Origin: an uncultured virus (IMG/VR IMGVR_UViG_3300037804_000366) | Lineage: Duplodnaviria; Heunggongvirae; Uroviricota; Caudoviricetes | Direction: 5' to 3' (one strand) | Virus record (IMG/VR): IMGVR_UViG_3300037804_000366 | DNA: 20,000 nt | Shown here: positions 8,919-20,000 of the stretch, piece after piece | Layout of the letters: the number at the start of each line of letters is the position of its first letter | Position numbering within the stretch: position 1 is the first letter of the stretch | Program-made: the position numbers and the translations under genes | Notes under the pieces: generated by a model | Told to the model about the DNA's origin: nothing | What the model saw: the letters and a program-made list of their open reading frames with translations, nothing else | The model's database searches: none

Positions 8919-9761
8919 ATGGGCTGTTTAAATTACTTACTAGAACAACCGGGTGCTACTATTACCATGAATCCTCATGGTATGGCAGGTGGCACTCTTT
9001 CGTATAAATGTGACCGCAGGGCTTCTTGCATGCTTGCAAGTAGTAAAATGATAGGTCCGGGTCATGTTCATCCTAGAGAACGTTGGTTGTATTGCAGTAA
9101 TGTAGTACACACGAATGATGGAGCATATGATATTATAAACGCCACCTACGAAGGACTGTCTCAAGACGCTATGCCAACTGGTGGATATTCATTGGGTACT
9201 ATACAGACGGCAATCCCACTACACGTAAACTATAAGGATAATCGTCCGGGCAGTTTTGCCGGCCCGATTGGAGAGGGTACTAGCCCCAATACGTACGGCA
9301 GGCTCTTGGATGAAGATGGCGCGTTTAAGGCATTCGGCCCACTCCCTGATGGTTTAATGAATCGTCCGCAGCCTGCCCCAGATGATGGAGCTGCAGAGTT
9401 AGAGGGAGTAGAGAATTTTCTACAAGCTGGTCAGTTGACTTTTAAATATGGCGCTCTACATAAAGAGAAATTACATGCGAGGTGTGGCCCAAAAAAAGAA
9501 CAAGCGCAGTCTGGGCGTTTAGCCAAGCAACACATTAGTAGTGTTGGGTATGTTTCTACCCCAATATCACAATCAATCCCTTATCTTGACCCGCCTTATG
9601 AAGAAGCAAATTGGTTGTTTGTTGCTCTTAATGAAGATGTTAGAACACAAAATGGTGGGAACGTTAGATTTTTTACGACTCAACTGGAGTTTTTAGCTAG
9701 TGGGCCGGGCGGATGGAATCCATTACTTTATAAAGACGTAGGCGCTACAAGGCTTCCGTGA
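8919..9761 (+). CDS. Putative distal tail / hub protein
   Basis: 280 aa directly after the tape measure gene; ends in GPGGWNPLLY; assignment mainly by synteny. Confidence 0.5.
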   Translation: MGCLNYLLEQPGATITMNPHGMAGGTLSYKCDRRASCMLASSKMIGPGHVHPRERWLYCSNVVHTNDGAYDIINATYEGLSQDAMPTGGYSLGTIQTAIPLHVNYKDNRPGSFAGPIGEGTSPNTYGRLLDEDGAFKAFGPLPDGLMNRPQPAPDDGAAELEGVENFLQAGQLTFKYGALHKEKLHARCGPKKEQAQSGRLAKQHISSVGYVSTPISQSIPYLDPPYEEANWLFVALNEDVRTQNGGNVRFFTTQLEFLASGPGGWNPLLYKDVGATRLP

Positions 9762-12268
9762 ATATAAACTTGCAGAAGCTGGACACTATTCGCACAGGTG
9801 CGAATATTTTTAATACCCTTACGGCGGATCGTATAAATGCCATACAGGACGCTATTAAAGAGCTTTCTCGTGGTCGCAATGTAGTAGCGGGAGACAATGT
9901 ACGGGTAACCCATGCAGGTGGAGCGGTCAATATATCAGCTACTCAAAAAAAAGACACGACGCAGTTTAGGGCAATACAAGAATATGCGTATTGCGCTAAA
10001 GACATGCAGCGACAATGCTCATATAATGGGAGACCAGACTATCAGCCATACAGAGACTTAAAAGGCATAGAGATACCACTTCCACGACCGAATAACATAT
10101 TCGACTTAAACTGCGAACCCTACCCAAACCCCCCGCTAAACGTATGGGAAAAATTAGAAAATACATACAACGTCGGTGCGGAGTTTATGGAGGACAAGGG
10201 GGATCATTTTGTTTTCACGAAGCCGGGGGTTTATGAAATAGAATTTGAATACACGGCAATGCACAAAGCGGATGCTTGTGAATGGAATAAGAATACCCAT
10301 AGTTTTGATTGTCTATTCTTTCCCGCATTGGGTAACAAGGGCACAACACCCGTATGGCTACAAGGACTTCAGCGGTGGGACTGGATACAAGGACGATATG
10401 AATGCGATGGTAAAGAACTCAGAGTTATTCATCCTGCGAATGCATATGTACAGTATTCAATACATGGAAAGCAACGCATACCTAATGACAATAATGTCTT
10501 ACTAGAGTTTTATGATAAAGAGAAGAAAGTAGGACTACGAGGAGATGCGGGAATAAAGTACAAAGGAGATTGTAGTTATATCCCAACCACGCCTGATTCT
10601 TGTGCGTTCGTGCGAGATGAGGGAACACCAGAAGGTGGAGGTTGTTCAGCTAGTTCGGTCGTAATTCAATACTGTTCTTTGTCTTCATCAGATAAACACA
10701 TAAATTTCAATACTTATAAATACAGTTTAACATCCGTACCGCACATCTGCTCATCTTCATACACTTGGGATTCACTATATGACCCCTGTGACACTACCTC
10801 TATTCAAGACTGGGATATCGACACGATCTACAATCCCGGCGACTGGGTAAATCGCAATGGTGAGTTTTTCATAAATACCCAGACTACCAATACGACTGAG
10901 CCATTACCAGATGATGATATATTTTGGAGTAAGCAAGACCCATGCGCTAACAATTACGATGTGGCTGTTTGCTCTGGGTCTTCTGTTACTACTCTTTATT
11001 TGGATGGTAACGTTGAAGCAGATGTTACTGGATCTATAAACGTACCAACTTGTAAGCTAAAAGGATACAAGACTTGTCCCGGCGCTACTGTTTGGTCGTT
11101 CACTCAATTTAACAATCAAAGGGTACACTACGATCAGAATAAAATTACTAAGATAGGTGACAATGAAACCGTCATTCATGGCGAGCTAGAGTTTGATGTT
11201 CCAGTCTCACTCACGAAGACTACAGCGAGTTGCGTCCATATAGTTAATGATTATGTGATAAAAAGCTCTATTGACAGCCAGATTTCATTTGCTAATAATT
11301 TGTCGGAAACACCATATAATTGTGGCGGATATGAAGGTAAGATTGACGTAGATATAACGATACCCACGGCTCTAGTTCCTACGACCAAAACCGTACACTA
11401 TCAGTACCCACGTTTTTCGACCACAACAGTAAGCTGCGGTGGTGCAACGGTAGATGTTGATATCGAAGATCCTACGATTAATATTCCAACTACAATAGCG
11501 AGCACACAACGTGATACTGTTAAGAAGTGGACGGCGGGAACTGATACGGTTAACTATGACACGGTAAATAACGATGGCAACGTAGTCATACAAAAGTACT
11601 CGCAGTCTACTAATACGTGCGCTGGTGGTACTTTGTCTGGACTCGCTTTTGAAGCGACTCTTGATATTCCCGTTGATGTTAAGGAAGGCGTGAAGCAGAT
11701 CATCGGTCAGGTATATATGCCTGAGTACACGACTGAATCAGAAAGCGTCATAACCGCTTGTCCTACGTTTTCTAGTGGAGACGTACTTTATAGCGTTACC
11801 CCAGTTAAGGGAACGGTTACGGATGCCGCGACTGGTACTATTAATCTTAATGTTCCGACTTCACTTGCCCCAACGACTACGACCGAAAATATTACTATTG
11901 CAGTACCAAGGATACAAAAGACCACTATTACTGTGCCACAAGTCCATAGCACCATAACTGAAAGCGTAACTACGGGGATAACGGAATCTGCCGCGAGCGC
12001 CCTTACTGGTCTTGACGTCACGACGTCAACTCAAGAAGAAGCGTTCGGTGGTACTATCTCTGTAAATGTTCCAACATCGCTTGATGTAGGAGAAACTGTA
12101 GTAGACGTAGAAATTGCTACGGATAAGATCACCACGGAAAGTGTCGTATTGGTAACGAATGTTACTGGAACTAATACGACTCTCAGCATTCCTACGATAA
12201 CCTCCGGCATGACTAGCGCGAGTGATTGTTGCTACTGTGACTGTGATGAAGAGGAGAGTGGAGATTAA
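9758..12268 (+). CDS. Tail tip / fibre protein A (Cys-, Thr-, Val-rich; contains a CBM5/12-like module)
   Basis: GTG start coupled by GTGA overlap; N-terminal LTADRINAIQDAI...VVAGDNVRV attachment-like segment; long beta-strand-type body with recurring (I/V)x(I/V)PT; ends CCYCDCDEEESGD. Confidence 0.65.
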   Translation: MNINLQKLDTIRTGANIFNTLTADRINAIQDAIKELSRGRNVVAGDNVRVTHAGGAVNISATQKKDTTQFRAIQEYAYCAKDMQRQCSYNGRPDYQPYRDLKGIEIPLPRPNNIFDLNCEPYPNPPLNVWEKLENTYNVGAEFMEDKGDHFVFTKPGVYEIEFEYTAMHKADACEWNKNTHSFDCLFFPALGNKGTTPVWLQGLQRWDWIQGRYECDGKELRVIHPANAYVQYSIHGKQRIPNDNNVLLEFYDKEKKVGLRGDAGIKYKGDCSYIPTTPDSCAFVRDEGTPEGGGCSASSVVIQYCSLSSSDKHINFNTYKYSLTSVPHICSSSYTWDSLYDPCDTTSIQDWDIDTIYNPGDWVNRNGEFFINTQTTNTTEPLPDDDIFWSKQDPCANNYDVAVCSGSSVTTLYLDGNVEADVTGSINVPTCKLKGYKTCPGATVWSFTQFNNQRVHYDQNKITKIGDNETVIHGELEFDVPVSLTKTTASCVHIVNDYVIKSSIDSQISFANNLSETPYNCGGYEGKIDVDITIPTALVPTTKTVHYQYPRFSTTTVSCGGATVDVDIEDPTINIPTTIASTQRDTVKKWTAGTDTVNYDTVNNDGNVVIQKYSQSTNTCAGGTLSGLAFEATLDIPVDVKEGVKQIIGQVYMPEYTTESESVITACPTFSSGDVLYSVTPVKGTVTDAATGTINLNVPTSLAPTTTTENITIAVPRIQKTTITVPQVHSTITESVTTGITESAASALTGLDVTTSTQEEAFGGTISVNVPTSLDVGETVVDVEIATDKITTESVVLVTNVTGTNTTLSIPTITSGMTSASDCCYCDCDEEESGD

Positions 12269-12270
12269 TT

Positions 12271-14223
12271 ATGGCTGACCCATGTTGCATTACAATTTCC
12301 GTACCTACTTATTCAGTAGTAGGTAGTTCGCAGACTGCTCTTGGCGACATTGAACTTACTACAGAAACTAAGTATTTAGCGGTAGTAGATGGTACGGAAT
12401 CACAAACCGTTCAAGTTACAATACCCACATACGATCTTGCGTTTGGGCCACCACAAACGTTTGATTTTACTGGCACGATAGACGTCAATACGGTTACTGG
12501 GGTAACGGCAACTACTGGTACATTTCTTACTGATGTCGGGGTTACCAATAAAACAATAAATATTCCTGTATTAGGGACGCAAAATTTAGATATAGCGCAA
12601 GTATATGGTACGACCAATCAGACGGTAGCAATATCACATACCGAATACGAGATTGCCACTTCCCCAATCGACATAGATTGGTCTACTGACATAAACATTG
12701 AATGCGTAACGGATATAACGCCAGCAACGCAATCAGTTCTAACAGGGATAAAAGCACCTTGCGAATCTAAAACCCTTAACTATTTAAGCTCCACGGGTAG
12801 CGTGCTACCACAAGATATCACTTTAGATGTTCCTACTTACACTTTAGAAACAGAAGCAAAAGTAATTAAAGGAGCTATTGATTCGGTCACGATACCTCCA
12901 TGCAATATTCCCGTTTTGTTACCTGATGGAAATTATACGGTACCATCATACTCTCCCGTCACTTCTAGCTTTAGCTATGCGAGCCTGCAGGATGCTGGCA
13001 ATGCGACCCTATACGACTACACCCTTAGCGGTAATACTCCAATTACCATAGAAGGCGCTACAGCCACTATACCCCCCTGCGACATACAGGTTCTAAGGTT
13101 TTGGTATAATCAACAAGGGAGCATACAAGTTCCCTCTTTTGATATAACTACATCCACGCAGACAGTTGAAGCGGATATAGTTATTCCTAGTTGTACCGTA
13201 TACTCATATTCGTGGGAGACCGACTATGCTTACCTGAAGGATTACTGGATTAAGTCTACTCCACGCGCCCTTGTATGTAAGTTTAATGACTATGACTTAG
13301 AGACCGAAAACAAGAAGCTGGATTATACGGCCAAGATAAAAGTACCGATTTATAAGACCGACGTAGAAAATAAACACTTTGATTACAACGTTCCAAATTT
13401 TGAAAAAATCGTAATACAAGATTGCCAAGTTCCAATAATAGAAGAAGTTAATGCATACGCGAAAATTGCAGGAAAGATTAAGGTTAATCTTGGTAAGATT
13501 GATGAAACAATAACCACGCCCCTGATCAGTTGCTCTACTATTCCAGTGCCAATTTATAGTACGGCAACACACACTATCGACTTTTCTTGCTCTACCAATA
13601 GTTACAGTTTGTCTGAAACAGTAGTACCAAACTCGATTACAGTTCCATCATATTCGCAAAGCTGTAGTTCTGTGTCATTAAAGAGCTATGCGAAAGCATA
13701 TTACAGTTCGTCTTCTATACCGTCTCGTACGCTTGTTCCTTGTAGTCCGGGAGGATATCAAAAACAGCCACCTACACCAACTTGGACAAATACAGGGAGG
13801 GCTAAACTTCGGCTTGATGTAGCTTATAGGAAAGGTGTAGCCAAGAAACTTGAGAAAGAGGGAAAAAATGTACCTGATGGATGGCACATGGATGATCCGG
13901 GATGTCAGTTGTGTATATTCGTACGCGATTATGATACTGGCGCTATACTGGAAGAGCTAGACAACTCAATAGACCTGTGGGGCTGGGTAACTGCAAAAGA
14001 TGCGGAAAATTCTTTTAATGACAAATTTGATCCGTTTGGCAATAAGGTTCGTGGAGATTCAAGATATGAACAAAATCCAATTGATCTTATAAAAGCCAAT
14101 TTACGGATTGAGCGACACCATCAATTGGAAAACGTGAAGTTTATTGACACCCCGCTTAAGTCAGGACACTTGAGCTACGAACAATTGAAACCGCATATGC
14201 CTTATCACAAGATTAAGTACTAG
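12271..14223 (+). CDS. Tail fibre protein B (putative antiparallel partner of A)
   Basis: Starts 2 nt after A with a GGAG SD; begins MADPCC; same (I/V)x(I/V)P(T/S)Y beta repeats; charged globular C-terminal region of about 150 aa. Confidence 0.65.
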   Translation: MADPCCITISVPTYSVVGSSQTALGDIELTTETKYLAVVDGTESQTVQVTIPTYDLAFGPPQTFDFTGTIDVNTVTGVTATTGTFLTDVGVTNKTINIPVLGTQNLDIAQVYGTTNQTVAISHTEYEIATSPIDIDWSTDINIECVTDITPATQSVLTGIKAPCESKTLNYLSSTGSVLPQDITLDVPTYTLETEAKVIKGAIDSVTIPPCNIPVLLPDGNYTVPSYSPVTSSFSYASLQDAGNATLYDYTLSGNTPITIEGATATIPPCDIQVLRFWYNQQGSIQVPSFDITTSTQTVEADIVIPSCTVYSYSWETDYAYLKDYWIKSTPRALVCKFNDYDLETENKKLDYTAKIKVPIYKTDVENKHFDYNVPNFEKIVIQDCQVPIIEEVNAYAKIAGKIKVNLGKIDETITTPLISCSTIPVPIYSTATHTIDFSCSTNSYSLSETVVPNSITVPSYSQSCSSVSLKSYAKAYYSSSSIPSRTLVPCSPGGYQKQPPTPTWTNTGRAKLRLDVAYRKGVAKKLEKEGKNVPDGWHMDDPGCQLCIFVRDYDTGAILEELDNSIDLWGWVTAKDAENSFNDKFDPFGNKVRGDSRYEQNPIDLIKANLRIERHHQLENVKFIDTPLKSGHLSYEQLKPHMPYHKIKY

Positions 14224-14486
14224 TATGTTACGGTCTCAGGATCTATTCCATCCTTTTTACAAATTAGCATTAATTGGTTTCTTATTTTCTTGAGAGCTTT
14301 CCATTCTATTTGCCTTATCCTTTCTCTGGTGAGACCGGCGATGTTGGATATCTCTTCAAGAGTCCACTCTTTTTGAGGACAGTTTTCTTCCGTCCATAGC
14401 ACGGCCGCTCTTATCCGTTCGTCGGCATCAGGGTACTGCGATTTTATGTCTGGGACGTCAGGGCAATCTATTGATGTCGCGTTCAA
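14220..14486 (-). CDS. Stand-alone sigma70 region 4 HTH protein
   Basis: WTLEEISNIAGLTRERIRQIEWKALKKIR closely matches the RpoD region 4.2 consensus (TLEEVG..F.VTRERIRQIE.KALRKLR); no region 2 in 88 aa; start codon uncertain. Confidence 0.85.
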   Translation of the reverse strand: MNATSIDCPDVPDIKSQYPDADERIRAAVLWTEENCPQKEWTLEEISNIAGLTRERIRQIEWKALKKIRNQLMLICKKDGIDPETVTY

Positions 14487-15165
14487 CTTTCCTGAAGACC
14501 CTTTCTTTTACTTCTTCTTCCACGATAGATTTAACTTCATCTCCGTGTTGTTCTATTAGCCCAGTCGCATGCAGCCCCATGACTAGCACATAATAACCAG
14601 ACTGCGTGATTTGTAAATCAAGATTGCCGATGTACCTTACATATTCATCCACGATGGATGAATTATTGACCATTGAAAGAGTCAACCCCTCTCCGTGGTT
14701 TCCCTTGAAAAAGGTTGGAAACTTTAACTTCCCGCCACTTATAAAGCAGATTAAGCTTTGCCCTCCCTTATCGCTGGTTTTTATTTCTTTCGTAGGCTCA
14801 AGAAACCCACCCTGCATTGGATTGCATTCTGACAAAAAGCGTCCGTCATCTATGGCAATGTTCATAAATGCCATCTTGCCTTCAAACTGAATTAGGTGAT
14901 TTTTGATCCCTTCATTAAAAAGAACCCCCTCCATTGCGAAAACAAAAGGATCTTCGGCATGCTTGGCTATAAAGTCCAGCTTTCCTTCGTATCCACTTTC
15001 AAAATGAAAACTACAAAAGCCGGCATAGCTTTCCAAGAGTCGGGCTTCTTGTTGAAATGGGTCGCTTGTACCTATTATTATCTCACAACCCTCTATGCAG
15101 TCTCTCGCGGAGTTTGCGGTTGACCAGACTCTTTCGCGATTCTCTCCCCATATTAAAACTTTCAC
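14458..15165 (-). CDS. Hypothetical protein, possibly degenerate GT-A (GT2-like) fold
   Basis: GTG start at 15165, one base after the upstream stop, with GAGG SD (MKVLIWG...). Beta-alpha pattern recalls a GT2 N-terminus but there is no clear DxD. Confidence 0.5.
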   Translation of the reverse strand: MKVLIWGENRERVWSTANSARDCIEGCEIIIGTSDPFQQEARLLESYAGFCSFHFESGYEGKLDFIAKHAEDPFVFAMEGVLFNEGIKNHLIQFEGKMAFMNIAIDDGRFLSECNPMQGGFLEPTKEIKTSDKGGQSLICFISGGKLKFPTFFKGNHGEGLTLSMVNNSSIVDEYVRYIGNLDLQITQSGYYVLVMGLHATGLIEQHGDEVKSIVEEEVKERVFRKVERDINRLP

Positions 15166-15166
15166 T

Positions 15167-15712
15167 TTAGCTTTCCTCCTCAAGTTTCTGCAGTTCCAGT
15201 CTGAGTGCTGCCATTTTCTTTGCTCTCTCTGGGTCTTCTGGCGCAGGGATTGCGCCCACTTGCTGATCAACGATATGGGATTTTTTAATTTCTTTACCGA
15301 ACTTAAATACAACATGATGATAGTCTTCTACTAGGTTTTGCTCGATAACTAATTCGTTATCTTTCGACTCGAAAATTATAAGATGAGACTCCTTGGGGTA
15401 AATCCTACCAACGGTATAGTTTGCGATACCACCCAAAGCTGGCGCTAGTTTCGGAGTATAAATTCCAATTATGCCATCATACTTAAGGGTCGCGGCTTGC
15501 CCTTTTGGAACTTTAACTGCTGTGCATTCCGCATCACCGAAGGGTAGGGCGTTGTTCATTTCATAAAGAGGAGCTTCCATGTAAGTCTCATACTTCCCCC
15601 ACGCGTCGAGCCTTTCAAGTATAGGTGGGGTAATGCTCACAAGCCCCTGTGCGAAAAATGGGCTGTAATTGAAAAAATTGAAATCAATTATTTTCTCAAA
15701 ACTGTCATTCAT
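15167..15712 (-). CDS. Hypothetical protein
   Basis: 181-aa ORF tightly coupled to both minus-strand neighbours; no family recognised. Confidence 0.6.
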   Translation of the reverse strand: MNDSFEKIIDFNFFNYSPFFAQGLVSITPPILERLDAWGKYETYMEAPLYEMNNALPFGDAECTAVKVPKGQAATLKYDGIIGIYTPKLAPALGGIANYTVGRIYPKESHLIIFESKDNELVIEQNLVEDYHHVVFKFGKEIKKSHIVDQQVGAIPAPEDPERAKKMAALRLELQKLEEES

Positions 15713-16685
15713 ATCTGTTCTTGGTTATGTTTTCGATTATTTGTATTACTTCTTTTGGCGTAGTGTCTTCCATACACCTAGATATAAGAAGATTTGAATC
15801 TCCACTAGGAGAACTAATTTTGCGACCAAGGTCAACCCTATCTTCACAAATAGCTAACTCGTCTAGCTTTTTTCCTTCTTCTATTTCTTGCTCGCAAAAA
15901 GTCTCCGTAGATTTTGTTTTCCAGCAAGCACCCATAGAACAACATTTATACATTCCCACTTTGCTTAAATAAAAGTGATTGTCATAACCCTCCCAGCTAG
16001 TCTGCTCACGACCACCAGCTAAAACAATTGCGGGTATTAGCCCACCGCGTGATCCCATCATGTTTCCAGTTAAATGCATCAAGAAGCTAACTGGCGTAAT
16101 TACGCCCATTGCTTTTTTTGCTAACAACATCAAATGCCTTAGAGTGGTCTTCCCTACTAAATTCGTAACACCCTTGAGGTCAGGATGGTAATGCCCCGCA
16201 CCACCGACTTGTAAAAACTTTATTGCACCCGCAAAATGATCTACTACTTTTTGATAGTGATGGGGATTCCACCATTTAGCCGTGAAGTCGTGTTTCCCTC
16301 CCGCATTCAACAACCAATAGTCACCATGTCCTGTGTCCCATTTCTGCTCTACATCTGAAAAGTAAATATCAGGCCCATGTCCAGATATTGGTATATCTAT
16401 CCCTATTGACTCGCCTATATGATCCGTAAATGCTCTGGAAAAATGAAACTTACGTTGGTGGCTCTTGTTTACCTCATGTTTGTAGTCCGAATCTATTACG
16501 AAATCAGCATACTCTTCTTTAACTGATGGGCTTAAGTTAATATTGTTCTCCCATAACTCTGGGCAACTCGTATGAACGTTGATCTTCCAGCTAGGCTTGA
16601 AGGTCTTTAGGTCACGAACCGCGGCCGTTAGCATTAATATATCGCCGGGGCTTTGAAACTGCTTAAGTAGGACACTCGTTGACAT
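15705..16685 (-). CDS. Glycosyltransferase family 9 (ADP-heptose:LPS heptosyltransferase-like)
   Basis: SPGDILMLTAAVRDLK, NLVGKTTLRHLMLL, VITPVSFLMHL, IPAIVLAGG and RCMEDTTPKEV match GT9 motifs. Confidence 0.85.
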   Translation of the reverse strand: MSTSVLLKQFQSPGDILMLTAAVRDLKTFKPSWKINVHTSCPELWENNINLSPSVKEEYADFVIDSDYKHEVNKSHQRKFHFSRAFTDHIGESIGIDIPISGHGPDIYFSDVEQKWDTGHGDYWLLNAGGKHDFTAKWWNPHHYQKVVDHFAGAIKFLQVGGAGHYHPDLKGVTNLVGKTTLRHLMLLAKKAMGVITPVSFLMHLTGNMMGSRGGLIPAIVLAGGREQTSWEGYDNHFYLSKVGMYKCCSMGACWKTKSTETFCEQEIEEGKKLDELAICEDRVDLGRKISSPSGDSNLLISRCMEDTTPKEVIQIIENITKNRYE

Positions 16686-17939: not shown

Positions 17940-18674
17940 ATGAAAAAGTTTGTTTTCGCGACCGATCTACATGGTGACATGCAAGATCCGGTCGTTGTTT
18001 CGGCTCTATATGAATTTGTTAAACTTTATAAGCCTGACATAAAAATATTTGGTGGTGATCTTTTTGATTTTAGAAACTTTCGCAAAGGTGCTTCTCCAGA
18101 AGAAAGGGAAATGTCACTCAGGGGTGACATCGAAATGGGTTTGGAGTTTTTGAAAGTATATAAGCCCCATGTTTTTTTACGAGGCAACCATGATGAAAGA
18201 CTTTGGGATAGCGCTAGGCATGGCAAGGGAGTCATTAAAGATTGGTGCGAAATCGCCGTTAATCAAATAACGAAAAAAGTAAATGCCATCAAATGCAAGA
18301 TGTACCCATATGATAAGCGTAAAGGCATTTATAGCTTAGGCAGGTTGCGGTTTATTCATGGATTTAACGCAGGAGTTCATGCTTCTAGGGCGACCGCTTT
18401 AGTTTACGCCCCAGAAGGTGGAGCAGTGCTACATGGACACAACCATGCGTTTCAAAGTGCTACAATAAGTAAACTTCGCAGGACTGAGGGGTATGGCGTT
18501 GGAGCATTGGTACAGGTGGACATGGAGTACAATCGCAGTAAGCCCGGCGGTTTGATGCATGGAAATGGGTGGGCTTATGGCTTTGTGGATGGGGATGAGT
18601 GGGAAGTGTATTTAGCTAAACAAGGAGATGATAAAAAATGGCGCGTAGCGACAAACATAAAGAAGATTGGATAG
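17940..18674 (+). CDS. Calcineurin-like metallophosphoesterase
   Basis: All five motifs present: DLH, GGDLFD, GNHD, HG, GHNH. Confidence 0.92.
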   Translation: MKKFVFATDLHGDMQDPVVVSALYEFVKLYKPDIKIFGGDLFDFRNFRKGASPEEREMSLRGDIEMGLEFLKVYKPHVFLRGNHDERLWDSARHGKGVIKDWCEIAVNQITKKVNAIKCKMYPYDKRKGIYSLGRLRFIHGFNAGVHASRATALVYAPEGGAVLHGHNHAFQSATISKLRRTEGYGVGALVQVDMEYNRSKPGGLMHGNGWAYGFVDGDEWEVYLAKQGDDKKWRVATNIKKIG

Positions 18675-18898: not shown

Positions 18899-19720
18899 AT
18901 GATCAAAAGTTTTTCTCTCGTAGGGACTCACGAGCTTAAGGAAGAGTGCCTACTATGTATATTGTCTATCAGGAGGCTGTATCCTGATGTTCCAATATTA
19001 CTATTTACCGACAAAATAACACAAGATTACCTTGATCCGAGGACGGATAATGTAGTATTTGACCCATTCTGCGAACCAGAAAACCTAAAAGTCTTACTTG
19101 AGCAGTATAGTTCCGTAAGCGTATCCAATAGATTCCATAGAGTAGATTGCATTGCAGCTAAAATGCACTGCCTGAGAAAAGCCATAGAGCTGTTTGGTAA
19201 CACGATGTTCGTGGATAGCGACATAGTGTTCCTTGAGAAGATAGATGACGCCTTACGATCAGATGTGGTTCTGTCGCCGCACTATCATGGAGACAACAGG
19301 CTGGGGCAGTGTGATAAGTATGGCGTATATAACGCTGGGTACGTTTATACCGACAACAACAATGCGGCCGATGTTTGGGATATTATATATCGCGAAAGGT
19401 CATCATTTTTTGAGCAACAAGGCATGATGCATTTCCATGAATACATGGATACTTATAATTTTGACAGGACGCATAACATTGGATTTTGGAGATGCAGGGT
19501 TTACTATAAAGAGTTTCCTAAACATCATGGGCCATTTATTGAAGTTCCTGATGGCTTGTTTGATGGAGCGAAGTCCTTACACGTTCACATGACGAAGTTT
19601 TATGAAGCCAGAGCGGATTCTGGACTAACCGCAGTGTATGATCAATGGATGGCCGAGTGCGATAAAGTCATAAAGAAGGAAGCCAAAGGCCTTATTGAAA
19701 AGTGGGAGAAGGTAAAGTGA
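18899..19720 (+). CDS. Nucleotide-diphospho-sugar transferase (GT-A fold)
   Basis: ILSIRRLYPDVPILLFTD, TMFVDSDIVF (DxD), YNAGYVY and FFEQ motifs. Confidence 0.8.
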   Translation: MIKSFSLVGTHELKEECLLCILSIRRLYPDVPILLFTDKITQDYLDPRTDNVVFDPFCEPENLKVLLEQYSSVSVSNRFHRVDCIAAKMHCLRKAIELFGNTMFVDSDIVFLEKIDDALRSDVVLSPHYHGDNRLGQCDKYGVYNAGYVYTDNNNAADVWDIIYRERSSFFEQQGMMHFHEYMDTYNFDRTHNIGFWRCRVYYKEFPKHHGPFIEVPDGLFDGAKSLHVHMTKFYEARADSGLTAVYDQWMAECDKVIKKEAKGLIEKWEKVK

Positions 19721-20000
19721 ACAACGCGGCTCTAGTTATAGCTCAGTTTGGAAATGGCTGGCCATATTTGGACTTATGGCTCTCTACCGTAGCTAGGCAA
19801 AATATGGATGTTTTGTTTTTTACGAATTATGATTTTGATGCTCCCCCCAACGTTAAAATACACAAGTGTTCTATGGATGATATATTCGATAGGGCTGAAA
19901 AAACATATGGGCTAAAGTTTCAAAACAGATATCCATACAAGCTATGCGACCTTAAGTCATTCTATGGTAAAATCTTTGAGGATGAACTTAAGGATTATGA
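19717..20000 (+). CDS. DUF6625-like putative glycosyltransferase (3' partial, not in ORF track)
   Basis: GTG at 19717 (GTGA overlap), open to the window end: MNNAALVIAQFGNGWPYLDLWL...PPNVKI...PYKLCDLKSFYGKIFEDELKDY, matching the YKLCD..P.YG.IF pattern. Confidence 0.7.
   Translation, partial: MNNAALVIAQFGNGWPYLDLWLSTVARQNMDVLFFTNYDFDAPPNVKIHKCSMDDIFDRAEKTYGLKFQNRYPYKLCDLKSFYGKIFEDELKDY

Follow-up and report, generated by a model that had tools for sequence, protein, structure and literature searches.

Two adjacent genes of an uncultured tailed phage, here called A and B, encode proteins without detectable homology to each other (BLASTP, best E 0.52), and when A is read backwards and B forwards their cysteines fall in register. 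What arrangement of the two products could account for such a mirror image? The genes lie in IMG/VR record IMGVR_UViG_3300037804_000366, a stretch of 20,000 nucleotides (nt) assigned to the Caudoviricetes and hereafter called the window. Their position at the end of the structural module makes them tail-tip or fibre proteins, the tape-measure label of the upstream gene being without family support. The original prediction, made from the letters of this DNA, was that A runs outward and B returns antiparallel, the two forming a hairpin-like fibre stapled by interchain disulfides. From the evidence presented below, an antiparallel juxtaposition of the putative arms of A and B is well supported and a disulfide zipper is plausible; for the whole arrangement, one heteromeric, antiparallel, disulfide-tied fibre, we put the balance slightly in favour.

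Mirror register of the cysteines

A recount of the 25 cysteines of A and the 15 of B bore out every position, gap and sequence context first noted. The main ladder consists of the pairs A824/B5 (sum of positions 829), A668/B164 (832), A621/B211 (832), A560/B270 (830), A522/B308 (830), A492/B336 (828), A440/B385 (825) and A405/B421 (826), with successive gaps of 156, 47, 61, 38, 30, 52 and 35 residues in A and of 159, 47, 59, 38, 28, 49 and 36 in B. A second register follows at 331/440, 306/465 and 282/491, with sums of 771-773. The complementary contexts are likewise present, TCAGG, SCGGA and NCGGY in A standing opposite IPPC, IPPC and IPSC in B, and A ends with CCYCDC where B begins with MADPCC. 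No pairs of DNA inverted repeats were found under the A/B region, and a palindrome does not account for the symmetry.

The claim that the register would exceed shuffled controls holds for one of two measures. Counting the cysteine pairs inside a single anti-diagonal band, with 1000 uniform shuffles, gave 10 pairs at a band width of 7 (p 0.006); taken over both widths tried, the band count is marginal. The other measure, a chain statistic, follows consecutive cysteines with equal gaps (tolerance 3), penalises skipped cysteines and scores every shuffle by its better orientation. It gave 7-8 for the antiparallel reading versus 2-3 for the parallel one, a score matched by none of 3000 uniform and none of 3000 gap-order shuffles. 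When cysteine clusters were collapsed to one, 1, 0 and 11 of 10000 shuffles reached it under three parameter settings.

The step between the two registers had been ascribed to a module looped out of A, and the positions bear this out. Removal of the 52 residues between the bracketing cysteines, Cys344 and Cys396 (both in DPC), shifts the sums of 825-832 to 773-780, compared with the observed 771-773, and the register jump is thus explained by the loop. The loop is like CBM5/12 (PF02839), a domain of sugar-binding type: it has the same aromatic pattern as the CBM_5_12 region of P0009, a homolog of B in which Pfam places this domain between C48 and C98 (E 7.5e-7; 29.5 bits with a cut-off of 26.2), and residues 352-401 of A align to that region with 37% identity (E 5e-5). 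The window loop (A344-396) lies below the Pfam threshold, with no PF02839 match at E up to 1. It is distinctive in being inserted between two bracketing cysteines in a fibre arm, and in belonging to A in the window and to B, near the tip, in P0009; another B-type protein, P0011, carries, right at its N-terminus, a smaller aromatic loop bracketed by cysteines. Sugar binding is its predicted function.

Six relatives of A were available, namely P0004 (92% identity), P0005-7 (46-47%), P0008 (40%) and the short P0015; those of B are P0003/P0016/P0017, P0009, P0010 and P0011. Cysteines 405, 440, 492, 522, 560, 621, 668, 824 and 825 of A are invariant in 6/6 aligned sequences, and no Ser, Ala or Val takes their place down to 40% identity. 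The unmatched C432, C827 and C829 are confined to the window and its 92% relative. In B, cysteines 5, 6, 164, 211, 270, 308, 336, 385 and 421, plus 440 and 491, are kept in P0003; the unmatched C145 is not, nor is C465. Over the main ladder, 18 of 18 matched cysteines are conserved versus 0 of 4 unmatched ones (A432, A827, A829 and B145; Fisher p 1.4e-4), in sequences that are few and related.

A profile built from B itself (P0002) and P0003, and run against 1.84 billion representatives, returned only eight proteins: these two, five real relatives or fragments (P0009, P0010, P0011 and the 72- and 68-residue P0012 and P0014) and P0013. The last of these, 6907 amino acids (aa) long with K/P/G/D-rich repeats that are presumably AHNAK-like, gave 12 matches through a hydrophobic-x-hydrophobic-Pro-Lys motif and was judged a compositional false positive. 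No fused A-B form was among the eight. Neither A nor B has a match in Pfam or PHROG or a solved structure, single-sequence scans of IMG/VR with both gave no match, and two contig scans of GTDB representatives revealed no prophage copy. Candidate partners of P0009, P0008 and P0011 in IMG/VR proved to be spurious loci, L008 being a radical-SAM cluster and L009 a high-GC phage.

Co-variation of the two arms

Both genes are carried by one further IMG/VR contig, L005 (which overlaps L004), with 47% (A) and 42% (B) identity to the window. Its ladder contains nine consecutive pairs with no skipped cysteine (865/10, 864/11, 707/171, 660/218, 600/278, 562/316, 532/344, 480/393 and 445/429; sums 873-878), a score matched by 3-113 of 10000 shuffles, and its second register (371/447, 335/483, 322/496 and 286/534) has sums of 818-820. 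Since each main arm of L005 has nine cysteines, an odd count, pairing within one chain would leave at least one of them over.

Compensating indels in a homologous gene pair had been set in advance as a check of the antiparallel fibre, and L005 provides them: within the same rung interval, in the proximal arm, there are 34 additional aa in A (alignment A1) and 14 plus 22, or 36, in B (alignment A2). The lineage-specific window pair A306/B465 is absent from both L005 proteins, and two new matched pairs are found in its stead. Independent gain of cysteines or length in A and B, which the original prediction had named as evidence against itself, is therefore not what L005 displays; one inner matched pair has become two, and both lengths have increased.

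A third lineage is represented by P0015 (A-type, 448 aa) and P0011 (B-type, 345 aa). They turned up in different searches, and each is encoded on a Logan contig 7125 nt long, very probably the same one. Their cysteines pair as 441/32, 440/33, 434/37, 433/38, 400/73, 361/112, 319/154 and 280/194 (sums 471-474), and the last of these rungs is formed by the cysteines homologous to A282 and B491 of the window.

We measured arm length in A from the A282-equivalent cysteine to the terminal CC, omitting the Cys-bracketed loop, and in B from the CC to the B491-equivalent. The arms of A and B are 490 and 485 aa long in the window, 524 and 523 aa in L005, and 153 and 156 aa in P0015/P0011. P0008, an A-type protein without the loop, has an arm of 526 aa, which equals, without correction, an L005-type B arm taken as a stand-in for that of its own partner. 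On a plain comparison of positions, the Pro motif nearest the tip is mirrored in all three lineages.

The arms of A and B are alike in being rich in Thr, Val, Ser and Ile, with recurring hydrophobic-x-hydrophobic-Pro motifs. P0015 (residues 280-433) and P0011 (39-194) show in addition a clear 13-residue hydropathy period, which is not seen in the window arms, and three sub-repeats per module of 39-42 aa, with motifs such as S-F-V-x-x-V and N-Y-V-x-x-V. The composition, the Pro motifs and the 13-residue period suggest beta structure.

Proposed fibre and competing explanations

The two products appear to be made together as separate chains. A stops with TAA at 12266-12268 and B starts with ATG at 12271, leaving 2 nt between them; the junction of L005 reads GGAGGA, TAA, one base, ATG. 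B's own GGAG inside the end of A (Table 1) and the tight stop and start suggest coupled translation, which would fit roughly equimolar synthesis of two chains. Both the separate ribosome-binding site of B and the frame offset of the two genes, which is not the same in L005 as in the window, make a programmed frameshift fusing A and B unlikely.

In the arrangement that we favour, the arm of A would run from Cys282 away from a conserved N-terminal anchor. B would start where A ends and run back, the CC clusters of the two termini forming a cysteine knot at the distal tip, and proximally the C-terminal domain of B would lie alongside the N-terminal domain of A. The arms would be built of Thr/Val/Ser/Ile-rich modules of 28-61 residues, equal in A and B, with one conserved cysteine per chain meeting at each boundary. 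Paired cysteines would most likely be oxidised to A-B disulfides after the virion leaves the cell, giving seven single rungs, the tip cluster and three proximal rungs, and the CBM5/12-like module would loop out of A between its two bracketing cysteines. The role of such a fibre would probably be host adhesion. The data show the mirror register, its conservation and the joint variation of arm length and cysteine number in A and B; physical contact, disulfide chemistry, the topology of tip and base, and function are what we infer.

The prediction that A runs outward and B back was borne out to this extent: the C-terminal portion of A matches the N-terminal portion of B in antiparallel order, as the register, its conservation, the L005 indel and the arms of P0015/P0011 all indicate. 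Its extended, strand-against-strand geometry, with 0.33 nm per residue and a length of about 160 nm, found no support: the mirror hydropathy correlation is near zero at the ladder offsets, and direct strand-to-strand pairing is thus not supported. It is more likely that each inter-cysteine module of A packs against an equal-sized module of B. AlphaFold2 gave no confident fold for A (predicted local distance difference test, pLDDT, 27.3; 6-row alignment) or B (31.2; 5 rows), and a complex prediction of A 396-836 with B 1-430, run with alignments, returned a score of 0.17 (mark 0.32), which weighs neither for nor against the fibre. The ESM Atlas yielded no usable match (best feature score 0.87, all TM-scores below 0.45, Atlas models with pLDDT 0.31-0.33), and a PDB profile search with alignments A1 and A3 found 0 sequences at E up to 1.

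Several observations weigh against this fibre. A band 5 wide contains 8 pairs (p 0.095), no more than the 8 of the parallel control (p 0.10); the chain statistic was devised after the data had been seen, and is for that reason taken as support rather than proof. The mirror hydropathy null applies to L005 as well as to the window (r about 0 in both), and with AlphaFold2 models of A and B that are unusable there is no structural support. Two cysteines, A272 (10571-10573) and A296 (10643-10645), are invariant in all A homologs and have no partner in B; they correspond to 270 and 294 in the short P0015, and might be partners of one another on either side of the base rung A282. Only three lineages of A/B pairs are at hand, and the spacing of the main ladder is simply conserved between relatives, so that its recurrence is not independent evidence. 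In the third lineage, the placing of P0015 and P0011 on one contig is deduced only from the equal 7125 nt, and their spacing is near-periodic (39-42); with clusters collapsed, the parallel orientation does as well as the antiparallel one, and 59-502 of 10000 shuffles attain the score. The orientation there consequently rests on the homologous anchor cysteines and the terminal CC clusters. Phages, moreover, assemble in a reducing cytoplasm.

That same cytoplasm, in which phage proteins fold, is one reason to consider that A and B lie antiparallel in one fibre and that the cysteine rungs bind axial metal ions or stay buried as free thiols. The register and the co-variation are blind to the chemistry of the rungs, and the needle at the tip of T4 gp37 is reported to be held by seven iron atoms bound by His (PMC6957217). 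We nevertheless think this unlikely. Each rung offers one cysteine per chain, so that a trimer or more would be needed to hold a metal; no His or Asp partner is conserved beside the cysteines, the His content being 1.1% in the A arm and 0.6% in the B arm; and thiols serving only in packing fit poorly with the strict invariance described above. A different view is that A and B each fold alone, for instance into a parallel homotrimer or a row of small domains, with cysteines linked within the chain or homo-oligomer; the mirror order would then follow from modules of similar size rather than from contact between A and B. The majority of known phage fibres are parallel homotrimers, the modules of A and B obey one grammar of hydrophobic-x-hydrophobic-Pro motifs and Thr/Val-rich stretches, and the absence of a residue-level mirror signal and the marginal band count agree with separate folding. 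The gap-order shuffles, however, keep the module sizes, and yet the chain score was matched by only 0-11 of 10000. Separate folding also leaves unexplained the paired +34/+36 indel, the joint gain and loss of cysteines and the balanced arms in three lineages, and the odd cysteine count of each L005 main arm argues against it; we hold it to be improbable.

To a role of B in assembly, as a template or chaperone that lines up antiparallel with A in the course of folding and then leaves, we assign a lower probability again. A chaperone gene often lies downstream of a phage fibre gene, and B comes immediately after A, its translation apparently coupled to that of A; but B is a protein of 650 aa with a strongly conserved C-terminal domain, its homolog P0009 carries a sugar-binding module, all of which fits a structural, exposed role, and conserved paired cysteines would hinder release. 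Least probable of all, and very unlikely, is that the mirror pattern is a coincidence. The band test is marginal and the stronger statistic was chosen with the data in view, but only 0-11 of 10000 shuffles match the chain score, exactly the matched cysteines are the conserved ones, and the pattern is seen again with other spacing in the third lineage.

The disulfide-tied A/B fibre can be carried further, to a picture that we consider a rather unlikely one. The two proteins would form a covalently closed two-gene hairpin stalk, possibly A3B3, whose length is tuned by matched modules in both genes and which bears swappable sugar-binding knobs (near the base on A here, near the tip on B in P0009, and at the very end of the tip in P0011). 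With both globular ends at the tail it would be a doubly anchored loop, and the tail tip could be triggered when the rungs are reduced or rearranged on meeting the cell surface.

Genomic setting and comparison with known systems

The features of the locus are collected in Table 1. On the + strand the order is a cement- or decoration-like gene, the major head protein (phrog_1005, E 5e-25), small tail genes, the tape-measure-like gene, a gene for a 280-aa protein, A and B; the coding strand switches after B. On the grounds listed in the table the tape-measure-like product is probably a tape measure, and the 280-aa protein, judged by its position, is probably a distal tail protein; neither has a Pfam or PHROG family match. 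The succession of a tape-measure-like protein, a protein of 280-300 aa and a protein with an A-like N-terminus is also found in L001, L005 and L007, and in L003, where only that part of the gene order is visible, a 300-aa protein precedes the A-like one. No sheath-sized gene is present, from which we surmise that the tail is probably non-contractile. A, B and the major head protein have no tblastn match among 50,697 cultured-phage records (INPHARED). We regard the source as a very divergent uncultured tailed phage, siphovirus-like, with A and B as its last two tail genes.

Table 1. Features of the A/B locus and the two genes preceding it, in window coordinates
Feature	Position	Strand	Remarks
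Tape-measure-like protein, 1228 aa	5230..8916	+	Helical, charged translation with a long hydrophobic stretch; size; position after the head genes
280-aa protein between tape measure and A	8919..9761	+	Last 4 nt shared with the start of A
Gene A, 836 aa, tail-tip or fibre protein	9758-12268	+	25 Cys
N-terminal anchor of A (probable), aa 1-80, TADRINAIQ motif	9758..9997	+	tblastn matches confined to residues 1-83 in L003 and L007
Conserved N-terminal domain of A, aa 1-281	9758..10600	+	Dense invariant columns in alignment A1; retained in short homolog P0015
Proximal second-register arm of A, Cys282-Cys331	10601..10750	+	Candidate rungs A282/B491, A306/B465, A331/B440
Looped-out CBM5/12-like module of A, between Cys344 and Cys396	10787..10945	+	Alignment to the P0009 CBM region
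Main ladder arm of A, Cys405-Cys829	10970..12244	+	Seven single candidate rungs (405, 440, 492, 522, 560, 621, 668) and tip cluster CCYCDC (824-829)
GGAG ribosome-binding site for B, within the last codons of A	12260..12263	+	
Gene B, 650 aa	12271-14223	+	15 Cys
Ladder arm of B, Cys5-Cys491	12283..13743	+	Tip CC (5, 6); candidate rungs 164, 211, 270, 308, 336, 385, 421; then 440, 465, 491
C-terminal domain of B, aa 492-650	13744..14220	+	Highest conservation within the B family; motifs PTWTNTG, TAKDAEN.FND and IERHH (invariant columns of alignment A3)

Two further uncultured phages (L003 and L007) have proteins that open with a counterpart of residues 1-80 of A and are unrelated to A beyond it. 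Each is immediately preceded by a 290-300-aa protein, before which L007 also has a tape-measure-like protein; the shared segment is probably an anchor to the tail tip. The protein of L003 (2382-5852), of at least 1157 aa, has only the 80-aa anchor in common with A; beyond it come a stretch dense in cysteines (about 20 from residue 323 to 633), repeats of a 'YDLGQERASAITGR' unit and a long tail rich in Gly and Ser. The C-terminal domain of B (aa 492-650) gave no family, PDB or usable ESM Atlas match. A motif C-x-F-V-R-D is common to A282 (CAFVRDEGT, 10601-10627) and B548 (CIFVRDYDT, 13912-13938) and largely conserved in both families; in the hairpin model both copies would be proximal.

Directly after B, a block of four open reading frames (ORFs) lies on the - strand (14220-16685). 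One of them encodes an 88-aa protein that matches sigma-70 region 4 (PF04545, E 4.5e-10), and the other three have no Pfam or PHROG family. Further downstream are a metallophosphoesterase (PF00149) at 17940-18674 and the start of a DUF6625 protein at 19702-19998 (E 1.9e-19). No tRNA was found in the window.

One of the nearest known parallels is the distal tip of T4 gp37, a trimer with a fold-back topology. The proposed A/B fibre would share with it an elongated shape, polypeptide running out to the tip and back, and regularly spaced cross-ties on antiparallel parts; gp37, in contrast, has one chain per protomer, His-iron ties and a far shorter needle. In A/B the out and back parts would belong to two genes split at the tip, two ORFs in different frames, with a single cysteine per chain as the tie, and His is rare. 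Regularly spaced His-x-His metal sites of the gp37 type were not found in A or B, the conserved periodic residue being Cys. The mirror order of cysteines on two arms, balanced across relatives, is found, with the arms in two genes and not in one chain. Neither protein is similar to gp37 or other solved fibre tips (PDB profiles at E up to 1, Pfam and PHROG), and no lectin-like domain hosting the arms was detected in A/B by Pfam or PHROG.

Covalent ties between phage structural proteins are on record. The fibres of cyanophage Pam3 are linked by disulfides to the baseplate wedge and released by dithiothreitol (PMC9942802), some 1700 disulfides are reported for Mycobacterium phage Jabs (PMC13419713), the virion of Agrobacterium phage Milano is reported to have an inter-protein disulfide network (PMC10811340), and siphovirus tail-tube rings are reported to be joined ring to ring by disulfides (PMC13576161). 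These systems resemble the proposed fibre in that cysteines of different structural proteins tie tail parts covalently outside the cell. They differ from it in that, in the accessible parts of these reports, the links are local attachments or ring-to-ring, and none is a registered ladder along two co-varying antiparallel arms. The statement that a split, Cys-registered antiparallel fibre was without prior description stands for the open-access and bioRxiv literature, where no account of a two-gene, Cys-registered fibre with co-varying lengths was found.

Phage fibres are the main determinants of host range. If the arrangement proposed here is true, an opposed two-chain fibre tied at every module would be a new building principle, and it would add to recent evidence that certain phages depend on disulfide networks once they are outside the cell. 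Its arms would have to change length in step, which would provide a built-in signal of co-evolution that could be used to pair genes in metagenomes. The A/B family has no cultured member, Pfam or PHROG family, or structural relative, so that expression of even one pair would give access to a new structural class and to a modular scaffold for the display of binding domains.

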